A DNA stretch of 64,000 nt. Origin: Dethiobacter sp. (GTDB taxonomy: Bacteria > Bacillota > Dethiobacteria > DTU022 > UBA8154). The position numbers and the translations under genes were made by a program. The stretch lies in NCBI GenBank assembly GCA_020725665.1, contig DYEO01000033.1:5398-69397 (forward strand), read 5' to 3'. The notes beneath the pieces are model-generated. The model saw only the letters and a list, made by a program, of their open reading frames with translations. It was not told the origin of the DNA and ran no database searches. Below are positions 9,792-22,957 of the stretch, piece after piece (positions within the stretch are counted from its first letter, which is position 1; each line of letters begins with the position of its first letter).

Positions 9792-10691
9792 TTATAAAGC
9801 ACGCAGAAACTCGGGTCGCAGTTGACGCATATCCCCGCTGAGACGTACAGACTCCAGTATCTTCAATAGTTTTTCTTTATCCCGGGGAAGGGTTCCCTTC
9901 AGGGGGAGGTAATTGGATGCATGATTACAGCGGAAGACACAATTGCTCATTTCCAGGGGCCGCAGCATCATTTCTATTTCGGCAAGGATTTCCAGGGGAC
10001 CGGGTACGGCAAACTCTCCCTTGGCTACCTTCCTGGCCAGGGGTGTTCCGGGGCAGACCATTAAGGTGAGCAAGCCCAGGTATTCCGGATCAATCCGGTT
10101 TAACAGCGTTGCCGTATCCAAAGCATGTGCAGACATCTTTTCCATGCCACCAAGCCCGTTAATTACGGTAATGGAGAGAACAAGACCCGCCGCTCGGGCA
10201 CGCCGGCCTGCCGTAATAATTTCATCCCGCGTGGCGCCCTTACGTACCCAGGCCAGGAGTTCCTCGTTCCCTGTCTCCACACCCAGGTAGACAATGCCCA
10301 AACCGGCTTTTTTTAGTGCAGACAGCTCTTCTCCACTCTTGTTTAACAGGTCTTGCGGCGTTGCATAGATACCAACACGCTCAAGCGCAGGAAAAGTACT
10401 GTAAAGTTTTTGCAGCACACTTAACAGCTTTTCCGTATGCATGACCATGGCATTGCCGTCTGCCAGAAAAACCCGATCCACTCCCCACAGTAAACGGGCT
10501 GCCTCTTCAATATCCTCTTCAATTTCTGCAAGCTCCCGCTCCCGGAATTTCTTTTCCAGAAAAGAAACGCAAAAGGTGCAACGGTTATGTGAACAACCGA
10601 TCGTAATTTGCAAGATTAGGCTGTTTGCTTCACTGGGAGGGCGATAGATTGCTCCTTCATAACGCATCTCTGAAAACACCATCCTGTTCAT
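9792..10691 (-). CDS. radical SAM protein
   Basis: 299-aa ORF with a CSHNRCTFC (CxxxCxxC) cluster motif near the N-terminus. No SPASM-like Cys-rich C-terminus is present. Confidence 0.8.
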   Translation of the reverse strand: MNRMVFSEMRYEGAIYRPPSEANSLILQITIGCSHNRCTFCVSFLEKKFRERELAEIEEDIEEAARLLWGVDRVFLADGNAMVMHTEKLLSVLQKLYSTFPALERVGIYATPQDLLNKSGEELSALKKAGLGIVYLGVETGNEELLAWVRKGATRDEIITAGRRARAAGLVLSITVINGLGGMEKMSAHALDTATLLNRIDPEYLGLLTLMVCPGTPLARKVAKGEFAVPGPLEILAEIEMMLRPLEMSNCVFRCNHASNYLPLKGTLPRDKEKLLKILESVRLSGDMRQLRPEFLRAL

Positions 10692-10730
10692 TTGTTTTTT
10701 GTTATTTTACCATACTTAGATTATACTACA

Positions 10731-10762
10731 AAAAAACAACCGGATGTATCCGGTCGTTTTTT
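10731..10762. terminator. bidirectional intrinsic terminator ending the polysaccharide operon
   Basis: aaaaaacaaccggatgtatccggtcgtttttt: an accgga/tccggt stem flanked by an A run and a T run. Confidence 0.6.
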
Positions 10763-10891
10763 CCCTTTTTATTCAATCATTTTCGCATGCTTAGCCTGCC
10801 GCCTCTGGAACAACAGGTTTACCGCAAAAACTGGCCCCCGCATAAACCCAAAGCAAATTAAGTTAAGTAGTCCGCTGCCGCCCACGTAAGC

Positions 10892-13254
10892 TCAGTCTAC
10901 CTGTGAAAAAAAAGCGCTGACAATGGGAAAGCTCTCTTTTTGCCTCACGCGATACACGGGTTCTTCCCAGAAATCCCAACTGTAAAATGGTAATGTAAAG
11001 GCAAAACCATCCCCCTTAACGTTACGTGGGAGATAATCAAGGATCAGGCCATCCCATTCCCCGGGGCTTATGCTGTCTTCACCAACAAAATATTGCCCCC
11101 GCTCTTCCGGCAGGTAATAGGAAAGGGCACAGAAGTAGATGCCGGGGGTGGTGGAGGTCTGCAGGGTATCACGCAGAGGTGCATCACTGTATTCCCGCGG
11201 GTCATCCATTACCTGTCGTGTAGAAGGATCCGTAAAATTCAGAAGTGCCCAGGGCAGCCGCAGCTCCACCCTGTTTTTTCCCCCGTTGATATGTAACATG
11301 GCAAGAGAGTTGTAATCCTGACTTTCCGGGTTAAAATTGCCCCGGGGAAGAACGCTTTGATTGCTGTAAACAGGCGGGAAAACCTGCCCGTCCCGGGATA
11401 TGCGCTCCCGGTTGACCAGGGGGCGGATAGCCTCCCATTTTTCATTAGTATCTCCAGCCAATGCAGCCCCCCCGGCAGAGGAAAAACGCAGCTCCCCCCG
11501 GTTGTAGGATGAGGTTGCCAGCAGGTAAGCTTCTTCATCGCCGGAGATAATAATCAAAAATTCCAGCCCATGGGGCACCTTTTCACCTCGCAGCGGCAGG
11601 CGTGGATTCCCCCCACCCGGGTTATAAGTATCCAGGCCAATCATCAATCCGGTGCCGGGTGGCAACAAAGAACCGCTTACTCCGCCGGCTTGGTCGTTTC
11701 CATCTGCAACCAGTTCCAGACCGAGGTAGAGAAATGCTTCATTATGCTCAACAAGCAGGTTTTGCAGTACAACTGCCGGAAATGCTTGCGCCGCCTGTTG
11801 AGGCGCTGCCTGAGCCGGGACAGTTGCCTGCGTGTAAAGAGGTTCCCCCCTGAGAAAGGGTATGCCGGCCGGCTCCATGGCCAGCAGGCCGTAGTTTTGT
11901 TCGGGGCAGAGGGCGTTATGCCAGTAAGGGTTACGCTCGAAAGGCACAATATACGGCTCGGTAATCCACGTTTTCTTTACCCATTCATCGAACAGTTCAA
12001 AGATAACCCCGCCCGCATAACCCTCTTGTAAAACCGCATCCATCATACGCACAATCATTTCTCCCTGCTGTCTTTCTGTTACCCCCCCGTGATCGAAACC
12101 CTGGGGGTGGACGTGAGCCGTGGCCAAGCCGGTGGCCATGCCAAACTCCGCGACGAGCGCCGGGTAAGGGGGGTGCAGGGCCATAAAATCACGCAGGTAT
12201 CCCCCATAGCGAAGAATGCCTTCATGATCATGATAAGCATTGTACGAGGGCTCGTTGTTCATGAAATCGGGGTAATTGGGGTAGATATGATAACAGCCAA
12301 AAAACCCTGCCACATTCAACTCACCCTGCTGCAGGTGATTCGGATTAAGATCTGCCATATCATTATATTCCTTTGATTTTTCACATAGATGTTCCATTCG
12401 GTAGGGTGATCGAGAGGGTCGAGGGTTGGCCAGCTCACAAAAGAAACAGGATGCTGCCAGCCATAGTTTTCTGTACTGTAGGAAAGGGTATAATCACACA
12501 TCATGGCCAGCCATATTTCCGTCGCGCTGGCTCCGGCGACTGCCTGCACAAAGTCACCGTTATAAACCTTGAGGTTGCTGTTGATCTCGTCGTTTTGCAA
12601 AACAACGTGCGGCTCCATTTCATTACCGATCAGCAAGCCCAGCAGGAAAGGGGAAACGTCCACCCCATAGCTGCCAAAAGCCCTGCCGCGCCTGGCACGG
12701 ATTTCTGCATTGCCGTGGAGGGCGTCCACAACATGGCGAATTTCCTGCATGTAATTCTCCATATAATCGGGGTCAAAATAATTGCCACCTGGGATATCCT
12801 CGTCCGGCCAGATCTCCTGCAGCAGCCAGATTCTTTTATGCGGCGCCGCGGAGATATTATATTCCCGAAAAACCTGGTAAAATAACGGGTCCAATAACGT
12901 ATACAGGCGTATTGTATTGGCATTAAGAGCGGCCGCCTGCTCAAGCCAGAGCCGGTAAACATCCCTGTCCATGGGAAACTGGGTAAAATACTTGCCCGGC
13001 AGGGCCGTGCCGATATTCACTCCTTTTACAATGAACGGCATCCAGCCTTCACCTGCAAACACTTCAAAATAACGTCCACTGGTGCGGGCGGTCAGCATGA
13101 CCCCGCCCATTTCGGCAATCTGGGGCAAGAACTCTGGCACTTTGGAAGAACATCCGATAAATAACGCGCCGCCTGCAAGGATAGAGGCAACCAGCAGGAT
13201 AGCAGCAATAATGGTGCTTACAAAGCGTTTTGACTTTGTTTTCGTCGATTTCAT
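10892..13254 (-). pseudogene. clan GH-A-like glycoside hydrolase lipoprotein, split by a 1-nt frameshift (or sequencing error) at a homopolymer
   Basis: The 312-aa (12316-13254) and 501-aa (10892-12397) ORFs overlap in different frames. A lipobox LFIGC follows the signal peptide. The NE acid/base motif (LLIGNEMEP) is in the upstream ORF and the nucleophile-like AEFG is in the downstream ORF. Adding one A to the A5 run (T5 at 12377-12381 on plus) fuses them into about 787 aa. Confidence 0.55.
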
Positions 13255-13321
13255 ATGTCTGATCCTTTTTTTGTTTACTTCTCAGTAAAAATCTACTCCT
13301 TCTGCTATAGGAATGCCGGTT

Positions 13322-14089
13322 TCAGATACGCAGCCCTCTTCCGAGAGGGCATCTTGTTTTAGGCAGGAAACACAGCCGCAGGCTGCCATAAACCGTGGCC
13401 AATATTTTTAACTTGCTGGCGCTTTTTTTAATACCGTATTTAACCGTAAATGGTACTTCTTCTATTGTGCCGGCAAGGGGGGCCAGCTTCAAAAGCAATT
13501 CCACAGTTGCCGAGAAGGTCCGGGAAGCTAAAAAAGGCCATTTACCGGCGGCTAGGGCCTCGCTGACCAGCGAACTGCGGTATGCACGGAAGTTTACTGT
13601 GTAATCTGTAACGCCGCGCAGTGGGAATGCTATGCGGTAAAACAACTTCGCTCCAATACTCAAAAAGCTGCGCAAGAAGGGTACTCCGTCCTGTCCTCCC
13701 CCTTTTGTAAAGCGTGAAGCAATGGCAATATCGGCACCGGCACGAATCTTTTCAACAAGTTCGGCAATAATCTCTCCCGGGTGAGTGGCATCCGCATCCA
13801 TGGTAACAATACAAGTGGAACGGGCCTTAAGTGCCTCTGCAAAACCTGTGATAACCGCCTCCCCCAGGCCCCTGTTTTCCGTATGGGAAACAATGATTGC
13901 TCTGCCGCTTGCAAGGACCCATTTGGTAGCAAGATCGAGGGTATCATCACTGCTTCCATCGTTAACGATAATCAGGATGAAATCACACCCCGGCGGCATT
14001 GAAATTTCGTCAAACATTTTTTGTAAAGCAGGAATTGATTCTGCCTCGTTATACATGGGGAGAATTATTGCAACAAGCTCGTCCGGCAT
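13322..14089 (-). CDS. GT2 polyprenyl-phosphate glycosyltransferase (Dpm1/ArnC/CsbB-like)
   Basis: 255-aa ORF with ILPMYNEAESI, VNDGSSDDT and MDADATH (DxD) motifs. It is soluble-type, with no C-terminal TM bundle. Confidence 0.75.
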   Translation of the reverse strand: MPDELVAIILPMYNEAESIPALQKMFDEISMPPGCDFILIIVNDGSSDDTLDLATKWVLASGRAIIVSHTENRGLGEAVITGFAEALKARSTCIVTMDADATHPGEIIAELVEKIRAGADIAIASRFTKGGGQDGVPFLRSFLSIGAKLFYRIAFPLRGVTDYTVNFRAYRSSLVSEALAAGKWPFLASRTFSATVELLLKLAPLAGTIEEVPFTVKYGIKKSASKLKILATVYGSLRLCFLPKTRCPLGRGLRI

Positions 14090-14144
14090 TAATAATCACT
14101 CCAATTAATTAAATCTCCACTTTCTTTGAATATCTTATCGCCGG

Positions 14145-14510
14145 TCACTGGTGCAGAAAAAAAACTCCGGCAAGGATCAGAAAAAAACCAACAATTTTAG
14201 TTGCGGTAACCGCCTCTTTAAAAAAAAGGATGGAGAACAAAAATACAATAATATATGAAATACTTATACTCGGGTATGCTTTACTAAGCTCCATACCCGA
14301 AATTACCTTAATCCACAGGACCATACTCGAAATGAAGAATAAGATACCGGTTAAAACCCATGGATTGCGAAATATATGCATAAGCGTATATGGAATTGCC
14401 GGCCATTCCAGGCTGATCTCTCCCATTTTGAGCGTCGCAAATTTTAATAAAAGCTGTCCGCAAGCCCCCAGGAAAACGGAGATAAATAAGAGTATTAAAC
14501 CGGCTTTCAA
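14145..14510 (-). CDS. small 4-TM DMT/SMR-like protein (ArnE/ArnF-like candidate lipid-linked sugar flippase)
   Basis: 121-aa ORF with four hydrophobic helices and an EamA-like half-domain pattern. Its start overlaps the stop of the GT2 synthase gene by 4 nt. Confidence 0.6.
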   Translation of the reverse strand: MKAGLILLFISVFLGACGQLLLKFATLKMGEISLEWPAIPYTLMHIFRNPWVLTGILFFISSMVLWIKVISGMELSKAYPSISISYIIVFLFSILFFKEAVTATKIVGFFLILAGVFFLHQ

Positions 14511-15904
14511 ACTGTTTCGCCACCTTTGTTTTTATTTAAAAACGTACTTGCCCTGGTCAAACGGCGTTTATAACTCCTGAATATTTCCTTCAACTGATCA
14601 ACCGGATACTCCACCCGCCAGCTTTTTTCTTCTGTGAGCACCGTAATAATCCCGGCCAGGCGAAACCAATAAACCATATACCTGTAAAAAGGCAGGATGA
14701 AAACGATCCACCAAATTTTTTTGATTTCACAGCGGTATAAACCGGGGCTGTACTTGTAGACCATGGCAAAGCTGGCGGTATCAAGTATTATATAGCAGAG
14801 CAACAAAATAATCAGGGAGAAAAAAACCGTTTGCATGGAATAGCCGATAAAATACAGGAAAATCAGCAAAAACGTCCAGTTCAGGCGTATCAGCGCCAGC
14901 GTGTGATCGGAGATAAACATACGGCCGATATAGCTGCGCAGATCATGCCAGATGCTCCTTACTTCTTCCCCATGTATGGCGATGGCTTCAATCTCGCCCC
15001 GCTGCCAGCGCAGCCTCTGGGCATATAACTGAGAAATGGAATTGATCGGTTCCACATAGGCGACAGCATCGAGGACGCACCCGACGCGGCGTTTTTGCTT
15101 CTTTTGATCGTTTTTTATATTAAATGTCAGATCCGTATCTTCAGAAACCGTACGGTCCTGGTACATAAATGACTGCAGGAGGGCATCCCGGCGAAAAATG
15201 GAAAAAGCACCGGAAAGGGTAAACAGGGAATCTGTAATCTGTTGGTAGCGGCGGCCGATATTGAATGCGAGCATATATTCGATTATTTCACAATAGTTTA
15301 TCAGGTCAATGAAAGAATAACCTTCCCCAATTTCCTTATCCACCCGGATAAGCCCGGTGGCGGCAGCCAACGAATCGTCTGCTTCGAAAGCTTCCACTAC
15401 CCTCAGCACGGCATTTTTATCCAGCCACGTATCCGAATCAACGTTCATGATGTAAGTGCCGTGACCGTGGTAGATCCCGGCATTTAGGGCAATGGATTTT
15501 CCGGCCCGCTCCATGGAACTCCAGGTCGTCATCATCTCAGGATGCTCAAATTGAAATTCCTGAAATATTTCAAAGCTATTGTCTTCGCTGCCGTTGTTTA
15601 CGCAAACAATCTCAAGCTTATCCTTGGGGTAATTCTGCCTGAAAATGGAATTCAGGCACTGGTAAAGGGTATCTACAGAGTTATGAACAGGAACAACCAC
15701 CGTAACATAAGGGTAAAATTCCATGGCATCGGCATCCGGTGATTTTTCCTTCGCTTTACCGTTTTTCTCTTCGTGTAAAAACAAACCCATAAAACACTTG
15801 GCTGCTGCAGATACATCCACCAACAGCGGCGCCAAAAGCCAGATGCTCCAAAAGAGGAGCAGGCTGATACTTCTGTCCCAAAGAATTTCAAGCACGTTTA
15901 ACAT
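14507..15904 (-). CDS. processive family-2 glycosyltransferase (polysaccharide synthase; XrtG-associated type)
   Basis: 465-aa ORF with an N-terminal TM segment and a GT2 core carrying VPVHNS, DSD, SEDTDL and QRLRWQRGE (QxxRW) motifs. It also has a C-terminal TM bundle. Confidence 0.8.
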   Translation of the reverse strand: MLNVLEILWDRSISLLLFWSIWLLAPLLVDVSAAAKCFMGLFLHEEKNGKAKEKSPDADAMEFYPYVTVVVPVHNSVDTLYQCLNSIFRQNYPKDKLEIVCVNNGSEDNSFEIFQEFQFEHPEMMTTWSSMERAGKSIALNAGIYHGHGTYIMNVDSDTWLDKNAVLRVVEAFEADDSLAAATGLIRVDKEIGEGYSFIDLINYCEIIEYMLAFNIGRRYQQITDSLFTLSGAFSIFRRDALLQSFMYQDRTVSEDTDLTFNIKNDQKKQKRRVGCVLDAVAYVEPINSISQLYAQRLRWQRGEIEAIAIHGEEVRSIWHDLRSYIGRMFISDHTLALIRLNWTFLLIFLYFIGYSMQTVFFSLIILLLCYIILDTASFAMVYKYSPGLYRCEIKKIWWIVFILPFYRYMVYWFRLAGIITVLTEEKSWRVEYPVDQLKEIFRSYKRRLTRASTFLNKNKGGETV

Positions 15905-17087
15905 CTCCCCGTACTTTTTTGATCGAGGGCCGTGTTAGAATATACCAGTAGAGAATAACTATCACAGAGAAAAAGAAAATTCGCCCGAATAAAGTGTGCG
16001 CTACAAAGTTAAAGTTGCGTCCGCCCCAGTATATTATGGAGATAACCAGCATCAGGCGCAGAAGATTAAAAAAAACTAGTGTTGCGGTGCCAAACAGGAT
16101 ATAGTATACTTTCCTGCCGAAGTTGTAGGCTGGATAAAAGAGGACCAGCCCCAGCAAAACAGCAATTTCCAGTAATGCTGAACTTTCAATGTCGATATCC
16201 AGCGTCGTCCAGCTTTCATCAAGTTTTATAAAGACCAGGATTGTTCCGGGAGACTTATCAAAAACGTGGGTGACCACATTGAAGTAATTAAGTATATGGT
16301 GCAAGATCACTCCGGTTCTGTGCTCAACCAGATACTCAATAAAGGAACCCCTGATTACAAGGATAAAAATAAAGGTAAAACCGACAGCACCAAGGATATA
16401 ATAAAGGGGCCAGATGCGGTAACGGTAAAGGGCCGCTGTGGCCACCAGCCAGAATAAGGCAAAAATAATAATGCCGGACCTGTTTCTTACAACTACAGGA
16501 AAAGCTTTCCACTGTACATCGCCTTCAGCGGGCAGGCGGTCGCCCCTAAGCCCGGCAGCGGCGAGATAAAAGCGGATCGGCTGCGCCGGGTAAACATTTA
16601 ATTCGGCCATGGGCAGGTAAAATTCAAAGCCGCTGCCGCCGGCGTCGCTTCGCTGCCCCCACATTCCTTCGTACTCACTGATGAGACTCCCGTCGGATGA
16701 AAAAAGCTTTATCCCCACCAAACCATTGCCATTATCGGGAACATAGAGCAGTTCTGCAAACTTGTCGATGCTGTCTCCATATGACCCGTTGTCATCTATA
16801 TCGAGATAAAGCCTGCAAACGAAGTGTTGGCCCATAGCTATTGGTTTTTTAAGTTTTACAGCAAAGTATAATCTCTGTTCATTCTCGTTGGTACCCCAAT
16901 GCAGTGACTGAAATACGTTGTTCTTATCGGTTTCATCTTTAGGGCTTGTAACAGATGCCCGGCCGTTCCAGTCCTCAAGCTGTCCATCCAGATATATTTT
17001 CTGCATGAAAATTGATCCCGGCGGCCAGATATATATTAAAAACACAAGCGCCAGCGCAATGGCCAGCTTAGCTGCTAATCTGCTCAT
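15888..17087 (-). CDS. exosortase-family (XrtG-like) membrane protein with an N-terminal extracytoplasmic beta-rich domain; the canonical Cys is absent
   Basis: 399-aa ORF. Residues ~205-399 are polytopic and carry the exosortase-like NLLR and AHTLFGR motifs. At the place where exosortases carry CSG the sequence is DIDIESSALLE. The N-terminal ~190 aa has a signal anchor plus a YLDGQLEDW sugar-binding-like module. Confidence 0.55.
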   Translation of the reverse strand: MSRLAAKLAIALALVFLIYIWPPGSIFMQKIYLDGQLEDWNGRASVTSPKDETDKNNVFQSLHWGTNENEQRLYFAVKLKKPIAMGQHFVCRLYLDIDDNGSYGDSIDKFAELLYVPDNGNGLVGIKLFSSDGSLISEYEGMWGQRSDAGGSGFEFYLPMAELNVYPAQPIRFYLAAAGLRGDRLPAEGDVQWKAFPVVVRNRSGIIIFALFWLVATAALYRYRIWPLYYILGAVGFTFIFILVIRGSFIEYLVEHRTGVILHHILNYFNVVTHVFDKSPGTILVFIKLDESWTTLDIDIESSALLEIAVLLGLVLFYPAYNFGRKVYYILFGTATLVFFNLLRLMLVISIIYWGGRNFNFVAHTLFGRIFFFSVIVILYWYILTRPSIKKVRGDVKRA

Positions 17088-20000
17088 TTCTTTTCACATC
17101 TTTATCTAATCTTTTAAGAAAAATCAGGCCTCCAACCAACATTAACGGAGAAAGGAGGGAAAGGATTGAACCCCAAAGGTAAACGGGGGTTCGTTCCAGA
17201 ACTATTGTAATTTCATGTTCACCGGCAGGCAGATCCATACGCAGCAGATTTTCAAACGTAGTGTACGGCCAGGCATGACCATCGATCTCCACCTTGATCC
17301 CGTCCAGCGCAGCGACTGGGACAACTACATTAACATCCCGGTCGATACTGTATTTCATCACGTAACCGCTTTCCGTAGCCTGATAAGCATCTAGAGGAAT
17401 CAACTCTTCACAAAAATATTCCCTCTCTAAACCAAATATTTCTTCAATTATTTGCAGCGCTTGCGGGTCCTTGGTCAGGAAGGTGTGATATGAGAGATTG
17501 CCCCCCAAAAACCAAACTTTGTGTCCCTCAACCAGCTTGTATCCCAATACAGGGGCTTTAACACCATAATAATCGAAATATAGCTCCTCTGCATCCAACC
17601 CCTGTGGAACATATGTTTTCCAAAGCTCAAAGTCCTTCGGAGCAAAAGGTTTCAATAAAAAGCTCTTACCGCTATTGTCGAAAAGCTCGAGCTGGCCGCG
17701 CAGGGTAACCGTCTCACCATAAACACCTAAAAATTCAGGTTGCTTGGCCAATACGTTTTCCGGCAGCCCGGAGAGCTCAACAAAAACCTCACCACCGGCA
17801 GAGATATAATTACGAATAAGCTGTTCTGCTTTAGTTTTAGCCCACCATTCTGTTCCGGAAAGAATTATTTTAGGGTATTTTATTAAATCATCCAGTGAAT
17901 ACCTGTCAAGATAAGGGGACGTCCCCATCTCTACGTTGGGGAACTGGATGGCAATCGTTCCCGCATGTCTGCCGATAACCAGTGCGTCATTATTTTTCAC
18001 GACCAGGTAAGGAAAATCAATAGCCCCGTGCCAGAGGCTGATCTCATCAATATTTACAATATGCTCATAAGCCGCTTTTCCGGCCATCTCCGCAAAAATT
18101 TGCGGCTCCTCAATCACATCGTTTTTAACCAGCAGATCCGTTGCGCCAAGCAGCACACAGGATCGGAACAAAAAGGGATAATACTGATATTCCAGTCCCA
18201 TGTTAAGGAGCATAATGTTTTGTGAAGTTGTAGCCCCCTGCCAGGCCCAACCGAAAACCTGCTCCCTGCCTGCCGTTTCAGAAAACAGGAAGGAAGGGGC
18301 CGAGCCAAGGCGGCTTAAGTCAACAGTAGCAATGCGCCATCCGGGCGCAGCCTTCAGGTACTCCGTACCCTCCAGCAGTATATACGATTTGGCACGTGTA
18401 AAGGCAAGCAAACGGACGGAAAAAAAACAATCAATTAAAAACAAAAAAGCAAGCAGGCATATTATGACAACCTTTTTCAAACTGCCTGCTGAAAGTGAGA
18501 ATCTTTCTATAGAAGGGGAAAAAGCCATGCTTGATATGATTAGAGCCAGTGCGGCAAAACTGGAAAACCTAAGGGGCCAAAGCAGGTGGCTTAAAGGCAT
18601 AAGTAAAAAAAAGAGGCGCGCAGAAGGGAAAGTAATAATAACTAAAACCACGCCGCAAATTGCCAGGCTTTTTACCCAGGGCAACCTGGTACGCCATCCC
18701 AAACATGTAACACCAATGGCAAATAACAGGCTGACACCCCAGTAAAACGTTTCCCGATCAGAAAAACGATTAAAAGGATTAAGTGAAATTGCGGAAGGTA
18801 CAAACTGGACAACGGCACGGACAGCCTCCGGATTGATCACGGTAATTCCACCGCTAAGGCTTGGCAGCAACCACCAACCTGCAGATATAATGCCAACAAA
18901 AACAATAAAAAATCCCCGCAACAAATCTCTTAGCCGGCAGCCGCCAAAAGCCCAGAAAAACAGGGCGAATAAGGCAAGGCAAATGCAGTATACCGCCCCA
19001 ATCATGGCATGGCAGAGGATAACCACATGTATGAGTAAAACCGTGAGAACAACCGTCAGGGAAATCTTACGTTCTTCCAGAATTTTTAAATAAAGAATAA
19101 ACAACAATGGTAACAGGGCCGTTGCCAGGACCCGGGGAAGGTTCCCTTCAGAAAAAGCAACCCGCACGTTATCGATCCAGACCGACCAGATTATTCCTGC
19201 CAGGGTGGCGGGCCAAATGCCAATCCTGCGGGCGAAAAATAGCAGAGATAATCCTCCCAGGAGCGCGCAACCAAAAACATAATAGTTGCCGGCCATGAAA
19301 ATGTCGGTACTGAAAAACCTCAGCAGGGCAATCATGTAGTAGGGCAGCGGCGCCCAGTAGCGAAAAGGCTGGGCGCCATTATACCAGTATTCAGTGAACT
19401 GAGGAAAGAAATCGCCCTGCATGATTTGTTGAAAAAGAAATTCAGCTTTAAAAAGATGGCCCCAGGTATCGGACCCCCAGGGGTAGTGCAGTCTGAATTG
19501 GGGGGTAATGATCTGGTAATAAGCGATGAAGGCTATGAGCATTATTAACAGCGCATGTAAGGCGTAGCGGTAAGCAGGATAATCATAACTAGTTAACCCG
19601 GCGTTCAGGGTTTCATCAGGCTGAGCTGCCCGTTTCGCTGTTTGTTTTCTGCGCTTATCCCTCTGAGAGGATACACGTTTTTCTTTATCATCAGTGTTAT
19701 CTGTGATGTTATCTTTGGTAGCGGCAATTTCTTGTTCCGCCGCCACAGGGATATTGTCAAATTCAGGATTGCGCCGTGTTACCTCAATGCCTTTTGTGGG
19801 GGTTTCCCACACCGCCAAATTGCCCAGCACCAGGCCAAAATCCCGAAAAATATCCTCAAACCGGTTAAAGAAAACCATGGCCATGTTTTCTGTAGTCGGC
19901 TGAACGATATTAAAGGGATACTGCTCATTTAAAACCGTTTTTTCATAGCAGGTAATAACAGAATTAATTGCCTCCATGATGTTGGCAAAAGGTATCTGCT

Positions 20001-20502
20001 CGCTTTTTTCTGCAGGGATTTTTATTTTTATATGAACCTGCCAGGAATGGGCATGGACCGGCCCCTGTTTTTCACCAAAGACAACATAGTGCCGCGCGTT
20101 GAGGAAGGAAACAAGCTGAATAGTGTAGGCTGAGGAATCAACAAGGAATCCCTCCGCCTGCTCAGCAGGAATAATTCCACCGCGCTGCCCCATTGCCCCG
20201 GTACAAGTGATAACCGTTTTCCCTGTCGACTCGTTTGTCGGATCGTCACAAACCAGGCGTTGATAAAAAGAAAGTTCTTCTTTAACCTGCAAAATTTCTT
20301 CTTCAATCAGAGTTATCCTGGTTTTGCTGAGAGCAACCTTCGCCTCGGCATCCATGAGGATACGTCCCGCTTCCAAAGCGGCTTTTTGCTTTATCTCTTC
20401 CGCAAGCTCATTTGCTTCGAGGATTGTCCGTTCAATGTTTTTGCTTTCCTTTTCTTTCTCCTCAATGCGGGCACGCAAAGCATTACATTTTTCCTCGCTC
20501 AA
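17068..20502 (-). CDS. coiled-coil + QueD/6-pyruvoyl-tetrahydropterin-synthase-like domain fused to a large polytopic (PTPS-related, GT-C/YfhO-like) membrane protein
   Basis: 1144-aa ORF. Residues ~1-85 are a heptad-rich coiled coil. Residues ~125-245 read F..ARH..VHAHSWQVHI..LNE..PTTENMA..VWETPT and align by eye with QueD. A Lys/Arg/Asp-rich linker follows, then many TM helices (~310-720), a large exported domain, and a terminal TM helix plus basic tail. Confidence 0.6.
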   Translation of the reverse strand: MSEEKCNALRARIEEKEKESKNIERTILEANELAEEIKQKAALEAGRILMDAEAKVALSKTRITLIEEEILQVKEELSFYQRLVCDDPTNESTGKTVITCTGAMGQRGGIIPAEQAEGFLVDSSAYTIQLVSFLNARHYVVFGEKQGPVHAHSWQVHIKIKIPAEKSEQIPFANIMEAINSVITCYEKTVLNEQYPFNIVQPTTENMAMVFFNRFEDIFRDFGLVLGNLAVWETPTKGIEVTRRNPEFDNIPVAAEQEIAATKDNITDNTDDKEKRVSSQRDKRRKQTAKRAAQPDETLNAGLTSYDYPAYRYALHALLIMLIAFIAYYQIITPQFRLHYPWGSDTWGHLFKAEFLFQQIMQGDFFPQFTEYWYNGAQPFRYWAPLPYYMIALLRFFSTDIFMAGNYYVFGCALLGGLSLLFFARRIGIWPATLAGIIWSVWIDNVRVAFSEGNLPRVLATALLPLLFILYLKILEERKISLTVVLTVLLIHVVILCHAMIGAVYCICLALFALFFWAFGGCRLRDLLRGFFIVFVGIISAGWWLLPSLSGGITVINPEAVRAVVQFVPSAISLNPFNRFSDRETFYWGVSLLFAIGVTCLGWRTRLPWVKSLAICGVVLVIITFPSARLFFLLMPLSHLLWPLRFSSFAALALIISSMAFSPSIERFSLSAGSLKKVVIICLLAFLFLIDCFFSVRLLAFTRAKSYILLEGTEYLKAAPGWRIATVDLSRLGSAPSFLFSETAGREQVFGWAWQGATTSQNIMLLNMGLEYQYYPFLFRSCVLLGATDLLVKNDVIEEPQIFAEMAGKAAYEHIVNIDEISLWHGAIDFPYLVVKNNDALVIGRHAGTIAIQFPNVEMGTSPYLDRYSLDDLIKYPKIILSGTEWWAKTKAEQLIRNYISAGGEVFVELSGLPENVLAKQPEFLGVYGETVTLRGQLELFDNSGKSFLLKPFAPKDFELWKTYVPQGLDAEELYFDYYGVKAPVLGYKLVEGHKVWFLGGNLSYHTFLTKDPQALQIIEEIFGLEREYFCEELIPLDAYQATESGYVMKYSIDRDVNVVVPVAALDGIKVEIDGHAWPYTTFENLLRMDLPAGEHEITIVLERTPVYLWGSILSLLSPLMLVGGLIFLKRLDKDVKRNEQISS

Positions 20503-20606
20503 TCGTTTTTTTTTGAGCAGGTTTTGCAGTTCTTTTTTTAAATCATTTTTTGGATTACGGGAAGAAGGTAATTCTTGACCACGCGTAGAAATTGTAATCT
20601 GCTCCT

Positions 20607-21125
20607 TCAGGATGAATCCCTTTTACGTAGTATATTTTTAATAATTTCCGTTGATTTCTCATTTTCAAGCAAAGTCAGGTTGGGTGCATGCTCCTTGGGT
20701 AAAACGCCCACACTTTCAATGGAAAACCGGTATTCATCGAGCAGTTCTTTAAACTCCTGCTTAAAACGTTCAAGTTTTTCCTGCAACCGTTCCAATTCCT
20801 GTTTTTTATCCTGAAGTTCCTTTTCCGTTGTTTCCAACATGACCTTTGCCTGCCGGCGTGCTTCCTCCTCAAGCTGAAGCGCTTTTTTCTGTGCCAAAAC
20901 CATGACATCAACAATGGACTGTTCCCTGGAAATATAATTATCCAATTTTGACTGCAGAGCATTTACTTCTGCTTCAGACTGTTTCAATTCGGCCTTTGCT
21001 TTTTCAATGTCAGCCCGTAAAATGACAGTTTCCTCCTGGTAAACACTGTTAAGCCGGTTAATCTCATTTTGTACTTCTTCAGGTTTATAGCCGAACAATG
21101 CTTTTTTAAATGATTTGGCCATCAC
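20607..21125 (-). CDS. DivIVA-domain coiled-coil protein
   Basis: 172-aa ORF. The N-terminal FKKALFGYKPEEVQNEINRL matches the DivIVA F..a.rGY...eV motif. The remainder is coiled coil. Confidence 0.7.
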   Translation of the reverse strand: MMAKSFKKALFGYKPEEVQNEINRLNSVYQEETVILRADIEKAKAELKQSEAEVNALQSKLDNYISREQSIVDVMVLAQKKALQLEEEARRQAKVMLETTEKELQDKKQELERLQEKLERFKQEFKELLDEYRFSIESVGVLPKEHAPNLTLLENEKSTEIIKNILRKRDSS

Positions 21126-21200
21126 ATTCCCTCCGTTCCTGCCTGCAATACAGGCTATCCTTCTGCCCTTTATATAATATTTAACTTATTAAATTTCACC

Positions 21201-21236
21201 ATTTAACAATTCATTCCTTCTTAATAATTGTTAAAT
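21201..21236. promoter_or_regulatory. 10-bp perfect inverted repeat upstream of the DivIVA/polysaccharide operon (candidate operator)
   Basis: atttaacaatt-N14-aattgttaaat, located 75-110 nt upstream of the start codon at 21125. Confidence 0.25.
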
Positions 21237-21329
21237 TTTATTAAAATATTTTTACTTCGTGATTATTGATTATAGTATATGCTGCCATTATCAGGTAATG
21301 GAATAAATATAGATTATGTAGAAAAAAAC

Positions 21330-21368
21330 TTAGAAAAAAATAAAGCTTCCTCAGAGAGAGAGAGCTTT
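21330..21368 (-). terminator. intrinsic terminator after the MCP gene
   Basis: Minus strand: aaagct-ctctctctctgagga-agcttt followed by attttttt. Confidence 0.4.
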
Positions 21369-21418
21369 AATTATTTTTCTGAACTGGATTTTTACTATTA
21401 GTCAACCATTATCAAATA

Positions 21419-22561
21419 TCAATATTTGAACCTGTTCAATCCTTCTTCCAATTCGCTAACCATATTTTGCAGTTCGTTGGCGGCACTGGAAATTTCCCCC
21501 ATGGTTGCCGTCTGCTCCTCCACGGCAGCCGAGACCTCTTCGCTGCCGGCGCCAATTTCCTGGGCCGCTGCCGATACCTGCTCTATCTGCCGGGAAATAC
21601 CTTCCAGGCTGTCAATAACCGCCTTCAATACTTCTCCTGCTGAAATGACTACTTCCGTGCCGTCATTAACCTTTTCCACACCTTCATCCATCTTATCGAC
21701 GACACCCTGAATCTGCTCATGTATATCCTGTACCAGGTCAGTAATCTCTGAAGCGGAACTGGAAGATTGTTCGGCCAGTTTCCTCACCTCTTCAGCCACA
21801 ACGGCGAAACCACGACCGTGTTCCCCCGCTCTGGCAGCCTCAATTGCCGCATTTAATGCCAGCAAATTGGTCTGATCGGCGATCCCCTTAATCGTATCGA
21901 CTATCTTGCTGATGTTCTGCGCCCGGTTGCCCAGGATAACGACAACATCTTTCAAGCCGTTCACAATATGCGAAATGACTTGCATCTGGTTTACAGCGTT
22001 TTCCACAGCACTGTTTCCCGCATGGGCTTGTTGCGAAATTTTATTGCCCATTTCCGCCATTTCCAGGGCGCCACTGCTCAAGCGCTGGGCATTTCCGGAA
22101 AATTCATTGGCCGAAGCGGCCACTTCTTGCAGGGAAGCACTTATCTCTTCAGAAGATGCAGCCAAGGACTCGCTTGAAGTGCTGACCCTGTATATACCGG
22201 CTCCGATCTTTTTGAACATTTCCTGCAGCGAACGTTGCATCGTATCGAGCCCTCTTGCCAGATCTCCATACTCATCTTTGAGCTTGACCGCATAGTCGGG
22301 CACGTTTACACTAAAATCTCCTTTTGAGAGCACATTGACAATAAAACTTGTGGAGTCTTTAACATTTCTGATAATCGGTTTTGTGATATACACAATAATG
22401 GCCAGGGTAATGAGGACAATAAGCAGGGACCAGATGAACACCTCCCTGTAGATATTTTTTTCCAATACGGGCAACAAATAAACCAGGTTTAGCAGAATAA
22501 AGAGGATAACAGGAATAATCCCCAGTGCTATCAGCTTCATCTTGATACTGTTTTTAAACAT
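21419..22561 (-). CDS. methyl-accepting chemotaxis protein
   Basis: It has an N-terminal TM pair, a HAMP region and a conserved MCP signalling domain ([31 protein letters not shown]). I place the start at the internal ATG (MFKNS), which is preceded by aaaggag. Confidence 0.85.
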
Positions 22562-22658
22562 GCTTCGTTCTCCTTTCATTTTTAAGATAGCAAACTGTAC
22601 TTGCAAAACCTTGCCTGGAAATGAATTTTTATCGTAACTGCTCAGGGTCTTTTTACAA

Positions 22659-22742
22659 GCGAAGCTGCGGGGACGGTTCGAGCGTCTCCGTAGCGAAGCG
22701 AAGGACCGAAGGGAAGACGATGGAACCGTCCCCCTGCTTCGC
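22659..22742. repeat. 84-nt GC-rich extended hairpin / palindromic element
   Basis: The arms gcgaagctgcggggacggttc and gaaccgtccccctgcttcgc pair over about 20 bp with one bulge. They enclose a 43-nt loop with its own cgtct/agacg stem. Confidence 0.6.
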
Positions 22743-22957
22743 GCAGAGATAATTCGTCATATTAATTTATTTTCCTGCTTAATTACTAATGATTTTACAA
22801 AAGAAATAGCCGTTTAACAAGGCTCTGCAGGCTTTCCCTTCATTTTTCCATGAACCGGGCCATTTGTTTGAAATCCATTGCTATCACCTCCGGGATCACC
22901 ACCATATTTATATTTATCCATATTTTTGATAAAATAAATGGAAAGGAGGTTAAATCA

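Follow-up and report, generated by a model that had tools for sequence, protein, structure and literature searches.

Glycosyltransferases of the GT-C type carry a catalytic acidic residue in their first loop, at the outer face of the membrane (PMC5836110). In the YfhO type of these enzymes, a C55-phosphate-linked sugar is made by a GT-A enzyme, flipped by a small protein with four transmembrane (TM) helices and moved to teichoic acids (PMC5836110, PMC8035078). YfhO-type enzymes can also act on Ser/Thr-rich regions of membrane proteins (PMC12041528). The experimentally studied YfhO of Bacillus subtilis has an extracellular region of 389 amino acids between its last two TM helices (PMC5836110), and the GT-C enzyme AftD of mycobacteria has extracellular carbohydrate-binding domains (PMC8035078). 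The family PF10131 ('PTPS_related', where PTPS stands for 6-pyruvoyl-tetrahydropterin synthase) is placed in the Pfam GT-C clan CL0111, with its function listed as unknown (PMC7801869). A system of another kind in Lactiplantibacillus plantarum consists of a Firmicu-CTERM protein, the exosortase homologue XrtG and two glycosyltransferases, and a self-aggregating strain phenotype has been found to correlate with XrtG systems in Lactiplantibacillus (PMC12854382). The protein considered here, which is compared with both kinds of system, is encoded by an open reading frame (ORF) at positions 17068-20502, minus strand, of a 64,000-nucleotide stretch of DNA from Dethiobacter sp. (contig DYEO01000033.1). 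This whole stretch is referred to as the window.

The protein is probably a glycosyltransferase of the YfhO/PTPS_related GT-C type with a degenerate PTPS-like module and an ordinary last membrane anchor, acting as a partner of the XrtG-like protein encoded next to it and not as a substrate cleaved by it. Residues 380-1006 match PF10131 over positions 1-621 of the 621 in the model (E 2.8e-156, 522 bits against a gathering cutoff of 26.4), and residues 134-242 match the Pfam model PF01242 'PTPS' (E 2.9e-13). The NCBIfam model TIGR03112 is passed marginally by residues 131-237 (70.0 bits, cutoff 69.35). The ORF has 1144 codons when counted from its first canonical start, a TTG. A database entry, P0001, is identical to the protein but begins 8 codons later, and its numbering is that of the 1144-residue protein, used in this text unless stated, minus eight. 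An AlphaFold2 model made with 86 homologues, in P0001 numbering, has a mean predicted local distance difference test score (pLDDT) of 88.5. It starts with one long N-terminal helix, followed by an alpha/beta domain (116-233) and a disordered basic linker; the helical membrane core then spans 302-691, a mixed alpha/beta and beta-sandwich region 715-1094, and the final helix 1098-1130. The initial annotation had described a chimera of coiled coil, QueD/PTPS fold, polytopic domain, ectodomain, terminal TM helix and basic tail, and the profiles and the model locate every one of these parts:

17068-20502, minus strand: whole ORF, '6-pyruvoyl-tetrahydropterin synthase-related protein', a PTPS-like domain with a YfhO-like GT-C membrane glycosyltransferase (PF10131, PF01242 and TIGR03112 matches)
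20248-20502, minus strand: predicted cytoplasmic coiled coil, weakly DivIVA-like, residues ~1-85 (AlphaFold2 single helix at 2-77 in P0001 numbering, pLDDT ~90)
19774-20133, minus strand: PTPS/QueD T-fold domain, residues ~124-243 (PF01242, TIGR03112, Foldseek, profile alignment)
19576-19755, minus strand: disordered, strongly basic linker KEKRVSSQRDKRRKQTAKRAA before TM1, residues ~250-309, cytoplasmic if the positive-inside rule holds (pLDDT <50 for P0001 residues 247-292)
18406-19575, minus strand: GT-C transmembrane core, residues ~310-699 (Foldseek, near-invariant columns)
17188-18405, minus strand: predicted extracytoplasmic domain, residues ~700-1105, an alpha/beta domain and beta-sandwiches with the last conserved strand LPAGEHEITIVL (AlphaFold2, pLDDT >90)
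17116-17184, minus strand: terminal TM helix VYLWGSILSLLSPLMLVGGLIFL, residues 1107-1129, with a conserved Gly1111/Ser1115/Ser1118 face
17071-17115, minus strand: basic tail, predicted cytoplasmic, KRLDKDVKRNEQISS, residues 1130-1144, of which the first 2-3 basic residues alone are conserved

Homologues number 170 at E <= 1e-5; after P0001, identities range from 30 to 69% among the 120 matches listed. Their named sources are mostly Bacillota (Dethiobacter-like organisms, Syntrophomonadaceae, Peptococcaceae, Desulforamulus) or Chloroflexota, and several carry the NCBI name '6-pyruvoyl-tetrahydropterin synthase-related protein'. The family, found mainly in these two phyla, is not large, with 273 representatives of 50%-identity clusters among 1.84 billion at E <= 1e-30. 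For comparison of gene neighbourhoods, 78 related loci (designated by L and a number) were fetched and their ORFs searched with the proteins of the window; 61 of these loci have at least 3 kb downstream. The architecture is already catalogued: PF10131 is named after its association with PF01242, TIGR03112 is an NCBIfam model, and the neighbourhood is encoded in NCBIfam models as well. A sequence search of the PDB with the whole protein gave no match, although the isolated PTPS-like domain or its profile did match. No functional study of the family was found in the literature on XrtG, Firmicu-CTERM, PF10131 or the family name.

The membrane part finds GT-C enzymes as its best Foldseek matches in the PDB, namely AftD (6w98, E 1e-8), AglB, STT3, PglB, DPY19, AftA and ArnT. 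Just after TM1, in the predicted first outside loop, is the near-invariant motif PWGSD345TWGH349..K352 (nt 19456-19482), and a paralogous clade carries the equivalent motif YP...D..GH. Asp345 is the candidate catalytic Asp. The ectodomain has weak, partial Foldseek matches to non-catalytic domains of GH42, GH164 and GH29 enzymes. Some homologues match both PF10131 and the YfhO family, PF09586. A second PF10131 GT-C paralogue of ~860 amino acids, without a PTPS domain, is present in Syntrophomonas-type loci, where it adjoins ArnF-like and GT2 genes (e.g., L010 19119-21716, L016 18903-21488, L029 18893-21475, L039 17163-19781, and others). It has the same terminal strand and TM helix with a longer, amphipathic tail.

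The ending of the protein had been singled out in the initial annotation, where the hydrophobic helix and basic tail were likened to an exosortase-type sorting signal and the protein was suggested to be a substrate or partner of the XrtG-like protein. The 20-nt overlap with the exosortase-like gene noted there is present (17068-17087), and the ending is not lost among relatives: in 105/120 orthologues a hydrophobic helix lies within the last 75 residues and is followed by at least 2 Lys/Arg. The helix is preceded by a conserved T-P-(V/I)-Y-x-x-G motif, with W or another residue at the sixth position. For the family, the ending can be written as a PxGxHx(I/V)x(I/V) strand that leads by a short turn into a TM helix, in which Gly and Ser positions are conserved and after which comes a basic tail. 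The same features occur outside the orthologues. In the clade of the ~860-residue paralogue a terminal TM helix is found in 61/64 proteins (with a basic tail in 46/64), and 26 of 38 distant PF10131/YfhO proteins from other phyla also end in a TM helix and basic tail. Three such distant proteins lie among housekeeping genes, and phmmer detected no XrtG-like or TIGR03111-like ORF in their contigs (L079-L082, of which L079 stops just downstream of its PF10131/YfhO gene). An ectodomain followed by a final TM helix is also the layout of B. subtilis YfhO.

Conservation of the terminal helix is comparable to that of the core TM helices (mean column identity 0.43, compared with 0.41-0.68), with one face formed by Gly (90%)-x3-Ser (79%)-x2-Ser (53%) and a pLDDT of ~96. 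When the last 49 or 80 residues were compared with the sorting-signal models of Pfam and NCBIfam at E up to 10, no match was returned, in a search where the HMMER filters drop most matches above ~E 0.1. Longer fused proteins at three Chloroflexota loci (L048, L050 and L061) have the helix in an internal position. Because the ending is shared outside the orthologues, follows the YfhO layout, is conserved like the core, matches no signal model and is internal in three fusions, it is most probably the normal final membrane anchor of the family and not a sorting signal. The likeness in general shape stands, and its interpretation as an actual signal is not supported.

The three fused proteins are single ORFs of 1052-1075 amino acids that join two components of the gene cassette (L048 10368-13526, L050 7921-11148, L061 10437-13631). 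Their order is GT-C, terminal TM helix, basic linker, signal-anchor helix, Firmicu-CTERM-like domain and a Q(W/Y)SP-TM-basic signal. In a Pelotomaculum metagenome-assembled genome (L015 9899-14518), the GT-C and XrtG-like proteins form one 1539-residue ORF in which the GT-C terminal helix and the signal-anchor helix of the XrtG-like part have become one; the topology of this fusion is odd, and an assembly artefact or a deletion may explain it.

Directly downstream of the GT-C gene in the window are the XrtG-like gene and a GT2 glycosyltransferase gene:

16488-17087, minus strand: XrtG-like gene, N-terminal half, a signal-anchor and Firmicu-CTERM-like beta-sandwich with the degenerate motif GDVQWKAFP at nt 16497-16523 (alignment, AlphaFold2)
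15888-16487, minus strand: XrtG-like gene, C-terminal half, an XrtG-type exosortase core (TIGR03110, TIGR04178, alignment of 67 cores)
14507-15904, minus strand: TIGR03111 XrtG-associated GT2, a PgaC/IcaA/NodC-like membrane synthase (370.2 bits, cutoff 363.95)

An XrtG-like gene and a TIGR03111-like GT2 gene lie downstream, on the same strand and in the same order, in 58 of the 61 loci, and the other three are rearranged. The beta-domain that makes up the N-terminal half of the window's XrtG-like protein occurs free, fused to XrtG (27 forms, including that of the window) or fused to the GT-C protein (3 loci), which is a classical signature of proteins that belong to one complex. With the cassette order conserved and its components fused to one another, the view of the GT-C protein as a partner of the XrtG-like protein is strongly supported; of the two roles first suggested, partner is the one that the evidence favours. 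A promoter and terminator scan of positions 10500-22900 gave counts at the level of shuffled sequence and is uninformative about the limits of the operon.

The XrtG-like protein (15888-17087, minus strand, 399 amino acids) is itself a fusion. Residues 1-200 contain the signal-anchor helix and beta-sandwich, residues 201-399 the XrtG core, and residues 206-391 alone match XrtG. The core scores just below the cutoff of TIGR03110 (100.6 bits, cutoff 102.75) and above that of TIGR04178 (44.2, cutoff 23), and several homologues are named XrtG by NCBI and JGI. AlphaFold2 and Foldseek gave no significant match beyond a generic beta-sandwich and no exosortase-like match in the PDB. In 40 related loci, the beta-domain is a separate gene directly upstream of a ~200-residue XrtG core. 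Each of these free proteins begins with a signal peptide and continues through the beta-domain to a textbook tripartite signal, for example ...DSGDIQWSPIPIMPLWALISIFVVALLTGTYFIRKRMKA; QW[S/A]P, a TM helix and at least 2 Lys/Arg are found in 29/37 of them, and the others are close variants. TIGR04145 is matched by 15/24 of the beta-domain proteins scanned (best E 2.4e-8), with all checked scores below the curated cutoff, and single proteins match IPTL-CTERM or PID-CTERM models as well. The window's domain does not itself match TIGR04145. It does align end to end with the free proteins, up to GDVQWKAFP, beyond which it runs straight into the XrtG core, the TM helix and basic tail having been lost. 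The QW.PFP motif is invariant after fusion.

Firmicu-CTERM proteins are the annotated targets of XrtG. The likely substrate of XrtG is therefore the small beta-domain protein with its QWSP-type signal, and not the GT-C enzyme, since the cassette already has a dedicated protein of the substrate type. Some Firmicu-CTERM-like proteins (L063 5940-7646, L071 13039-14748) have an extra N-terminal domain and a ~150-residue Pro/Thr-rich linker. Such a linker is typical of O-glycosylated regions and would fit a protein acceptor for the GT-C enzyme.

Alignment of 67 XrtG cores showed Glu301, Ser303, Glu307, Asn341, Arg344 and His364 to be invariant or nearly so. The position before Ser303, presumably that of the Cys in the exosortase 'CSG' motif, is occupied by Cys in 21 cores, by Ser in 29 and by Asn in 14, with IECSGLLE in many. 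None of the 27 fused forms has Cys at this position (Asn 14, Ser 11, Arg 1, His 1), compared with 21 of the 40 split forms. For exosortases and archaeosortases, the catalytic triad is suspected to consist of Cys, Arg and His (10.1101/2023.06.07.544157). In the window, Arg344 and His364 are retained, Ser302 (IESSALLE) stands at the canonical Cys position, and the core as a whole contains no Cys. Judging from the Asn, Arg and His found in sister fused lineages, constraint on the Cys position seems to have relaxed once the substrate had been fused, and this further weakens the idea of an XrtG-like protein that cleaves the GT-C enzyme. The missing Cys is no proof of an inactive core, because Ser is also present in 18 split Chloroflexota systems with intact sorting signals.

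The PTPS-like domain had been recognised by eye at residues ~125-245, and both profile alignment and Foldseek agree. Target-normalised TM-scores were 0.68-0.82 against 2dj6, 4ntk, 3qn0 and 2oba (~0.8 for 2dj6 and 4ntk), and a profile from 19 diverse copies of the domain retrieved PDB chains of PTPS and QueD at E 1.7e-10 to 2e-3. Across these 19 copies 23 positions are invariant, including the zinc triad and both substrate-anchoring Glu residues. The zinc-ligand His residues, which the initial annotation had thought retained, are His138 (NARH) and His150 and His152 (VHAH) in the alignment to PDB chains; the pterin-anchoring residues are Glu205 (PTTEN) and Glu233 (WETP).

A Cys serves as the catalytic base in the QueD and PTPS families. 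No Cys is found at its position, four residues before the HxH motif. The equivalent of QueD Cys27, aligned with the Cys of 2oba (GHKCGRLHGH), is Gln146, and Lys, Gln or other residues occur there in the family. The LDH(H/N)YLN segment aligns with YEKTVLN (family consensus YENTxLN), with Glu187 in place of Asp and Lys188 in place of His. The failure to find the Cys and the Asp-His pair by eye is thus borne out, as is the suggestion of a repurposed fold, with the zinc triad kept and the Cys and the His of the pair lost. Because the catalytic base is lost while metal and ligand-anchoring residues are kept, the domain is unlikely to be a pterin synthase and is most likely a ligand-binding or oligomerising cytoplasmic module. 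Pfam and NCBIfam scans showed no genes of pterin or queuosine pathways in the locus.

In Chloroflexota, the PTPS-like domain makes up a small protein of its own, whose gene immediately precedes that of a GT-C protein of ~830 amino acids. Whatever its role, the domain is an obligate cytoplasmic partner of the membrane enzyme. Some stand-alone copies in Chloroflexota/Dehalococcoidia form the end of a 460-560-residue cytoplasmic protein (L056 5299-6687, L058 8897-10360, L071 8852-10360, L072 8747-10432). These proteins have a Cys-rich N-terminal motif, CxNCFxEF...CCxGCxxGGPCxC, that is metal-binding in appearance.

Two further genes of the window could supply the enzyme with its donor:

14145-14510, minus strand: ArnF/ArnE-like four-TM SMR/EamA protein, candidate flippase for a lipid-linked sugar (NF002816 E 1.4e-19, EamA E 5e-6, both below curated cutoffs)
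13322-14089, minus strand: GT2 of 255 amino acids related to polyprenyl-phosphate sugar synthases (PgfS, ArnC, PpgS, Dol-P-hexose transferases; a family-level relation, below equivalog cutoffs)

Both lie downstream of the cassette, and together with the GT-C protein they would make up the three parts of a transmembrane glycosylation system. A scheme for the action of the protein can be drawn from the YfhO precedent. The coiled coil, the PTPS-like zinc domain and the basic linker would be cytoplasmic. The TM core would set Asp345 of loop 1 on the outer face, with the large ectodomain outside, and the last helix would re-enter toward the cytoplasm, where the short basic tail would end. By analogy with the family, the donor would be a polyprenyl-phosphate-linked sugar in the outer leaflet, for which the ArnC/PgfS-like GT2 (13322-14089) is a plausible synthase and the ArnF-like protein (14145-14510) a plausible flippase. 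The sugar would then be passed to an extracytoplasmic acceptor, with the glycan of the TIGR03111 GT2 and the Firmicu-CTERM-like beta-domain borne by XrtG as candidates.

Several points weigh against this reading. The donor, the acceptor and even the catalytic activity of PF10131 proteins are inferred, and the topology is taken from the positive-inside rule and family precedent. That the terminal helix packs on the TM bundle is suggested by its pLDDT of ~96 and its conservation pattern alone. The ArnC-like and ArnF-like genes accompany the cassette in only 17/61 and 19/61 loci, respectively, and several Syntrophomonas loci place both beside the second GT-C paralogue; the helper genes may not serve this enzyme, and their assignment to it is putative. 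The role given to the PTPS-like domain is a guess, as its 23 invariant positions would equally fit a real but different enzymatic activity.

Other explanations of the locus differ in what they make of the C-terminus, the GT-C core and the PTPS-like domain. If the terminal motif, helix and basic tail were an exosortase sorting signal, the XrtG-like protein would cleave or re-anchor the C-terminus of the GT-C protein. The generic tripartite shape with its conserved T-P-V/I-Y-x-W/x-G motif, the 20-nt overlap of two genes that are always linked, the predicted position of both the motif and the E301/S303 region of XrtG at the outer membrane face, and the lack of any other ORF in the 64-kb window that ends in a TM helix and basic tail would all suit such an arrangement. 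It is nevertheless highly improbable. Paralogues, distant PF10131/YfhO proteins with no XrtG neighbour and B. subtilis YfhO share the ending, no sorting-signal model matches the tail, and the helix is internal in three fused homologues. A polytopic protein would be neither released nor re-sorted by the loss of one of its ~14 TM helices. In addition, the cassette has a dedicated Firmicu-CTERM-like substrate with a different motif (QWSP), and the XrtG core of the window has Ser at the canonical Cys position, where sister fused forms have Asn, Arg or His. An unlikely but more credible proposal is that the GT-C protein is a polymerising or ligating enzyme, which extends a glycan or transfers it en bloc to the beta-domain protein in the manner of an oligosaccharyltransferase, while the XrtG core holds the acceptor. 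AftD, which elongates arabinan, and the oligosaccharyltransferases AglB, STT3 and PglB are indeed among the top Foldseek matches, but such structures are retrieved by any GT-C query, and the TM-scores are low (0.27-0.33, query-normalised). The core cassette of GT-C, beta-domain, XrtG and GT2 is kept even where the ArnC-like and ArnF-like genes are missing, the beta-domain is fused to GT-C or XrtG depending on the lineage, some Chloroflexota beta-domain proteins have long Pro/Thr-rich linkers of the kind typical of O-glycosylated regions, and protein glycosylation is possible for YfhO-type enzymes (PMC12041528). However, processive synthases of the kind that the TIGR03111 GT2 resembles (PgaC/IcaA, 136 bits) export what they make without the help of a lipid carrier, and this would leave no lipid-linked oligosaccharide to transfer.

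The PTPS-like domain might also be active with altered chemistry, using Glu187 or another base to make a small cytoplasmic product for the cassette, so that the protein would be bifunctional. Invariance of 23 positions in 19 diverse sequences, zinc triad and both Glu included, is what an enzyme would show, and Chloroflexota keep the domain as a separate gene directly upstream of the GT-C gene. The closest structure, PH0634 (2dj6), appears in the alignment without the canonical Cys and is still deposited as a PTPS. Against these observations stand the absence of the Cys base of the QueD and PTPS families, the replacement of the relay His by Lys or Asn, and a locus in which the scans found no pterin or queuosine pathway genes; no glycan pathway that requires a pterin is known to us. 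An active domain is very unlikely on this evidence. The exosortase homologue could instead have become a non-cleaving or cis-only scaffold, with its former substrate permanently fused to it as an ectodomain, that docks the GT-C and GT2 enzymes into a single machine for envelope glycan, while the coil, the PTPS-like domain and a DivIVA protein position the system or gate it by a pterin- or purine-like metabolite. This is a doubtful speculation, compatible with the locus because the beta-domain is found free, XrtG-fused or GT-C-fused, Cys never occurs in the fused forms and QW.PFP is invariant after fusion. A GT-C glycosyltransferase with an ordinary last anchor, partnered with XrtG and not cleaved by it, remains the favoured description of the protein.

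Upstream of the GT-C gene, and at the N-terminus of its product, there are links of varying strength to DivIVA:

20607-21125, minus strand: DivIVA-domain protein, 172 amino acids, immediately upstream of the GT-C gene (PF05103, E 1.2e-10)

A DivIVA-domain gene occupies the same upstream position in 22/68 related loci and hints at polar or septal placement of the system. The coiled coil of the GT-C protein itself matches DivIVA weakly (E 0.003, below cutoff). Its derivation as a DivIVA paralogue was considered and dropped, as BLASTP against the upstream DivIVA-like protein was not significant. The frame of the GT-C gene stays open for 40 codons beyond the TTG at 20502, up to 20622, and these upstream codons encode residues similar to the N-termini of homologues. 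This open stretch contains no ATG, GTG or TTG. The stop of the upstream gene (TGA 20609-20607) overlaps a strong AAGGAG sequence at 20607-20602. A non-canonical codon (CTG or ATT) as far as ~40 codons upstream may be the true start, or the N-terminus may be shortened.

At the other end of the gene group, two overlapping ORFs of 312 and 501 amino acids (10892-13254, minus strand) are halves of one protein of ~810-850 amino acids, an intact relative of which (63% identity) is encoded at L004 20385-22949. The frameshift lies near 12316-12397 and marks either a pseudogene or a sequencing error. The N-terminal half has a signal-anchor and, by eye, resembles a glycoside-hydrolase-type barrel. Neither half matched a Pfam or NCBIfam model, and the intact relative had no match in the PDB.

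The GT-C protein can be considered an ordinary member of an annotated but uncharacterised family and is not a discovery as such. Its genes are tied to an exosortase homologue in a cassette of four parts. The more useful outcome lies in the observations on the fused, Cys-less XrtG and on the QWSP-type signal, which could guide experiments on XrtG systems; in a large clade that includes the window, the likely substrate is fused to an XrtG core without the canonical Cys. A puzzle is also raised by the attachment of a zinc-binding pterin-synthase fold, without its catalytic base, to an outward-facing glycosyltransferase.

Among known systems, mycobacterial AftD (6w98) is the best structural match (E 1e-8, 934 aligned columns), and both proteins combine a GT-C core with a large extracytoplasmic domain. 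The identity is 11% with a TM-score of ~0.3, the ectodomain folds differ, and there is no evidence for an arabinofuranosyl donor. The likeness to QueD and PTPS (COG0720 T-fold; 4ntk, 3qn0, 2oba, 2dj6, 1b66) lies in the fold, the three-His zinc site and the Glu residues of the PTxE and xET motifs. In contrast to those enzymes, the domain has Gln146 for Cys and Glu187-Lys188 for Asp-His, is embedded in a membrane protein and has no pterin or queuosine context. Substrates of the PEP-CTERM, PGF-CTERM and Firmicu-CTERM types resemble the protein in their C-terminal short motif, hydrophobic helix and basic cluster and in a gene beside an exosortase homologue. Unlike them, it is polytopic, lacks an N-terminal signal peptide, matches no sorting-signal hidden Markov model and shares its ending with relatives that have no exosortase; its helix, with conserved Gly and Ser, is like a packing helix.

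The YfhO family, which includes the YfhO, CsbB and GtcA systems of B. subtilis, S. aureus and Listeria and the streptococcal PgtC2 and PgfM1 with GtrB/PgfS, has the same many-TM GT-C core, ~400-residue extracytoplasmic domain and single last TM helix. It also shares with the window a GT2 of the polyprenyl-phosphate-sugar-synthase type and a small four-TM flippase-like protein. The differences are that the present protein scores with PF10131 and not PF09586, carries a cytoplasmic coiled coil and PTPS-like domain, and is encoded in fixed linkage with an XrtG-like gene and a synthase-type GT2. As its flippase candidate the window has an ArnE/F-like protein, compared with GtrA/GtcA-like proteins in YfhO systems, and the 255-residue GT2 has no C-terminal hydrophobic stretch obvious by eye, whereas CsbB-type enzymes have two C-terminal TM helices. 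All four parts of the NCBIfam XrtG cassette (TIGR03110, TIGR03111, TIGR03112 and TIGR04145) are recognisable in the window. The window departs from that cassette in a TIGR03110 score just below cutoff, in Ser for Cys, in a Firmicu-CTERM-like domain fused to the N-terminus of XrtG, and in a PTPS-related domain fused to a large GT-C protein with a coiled coil.

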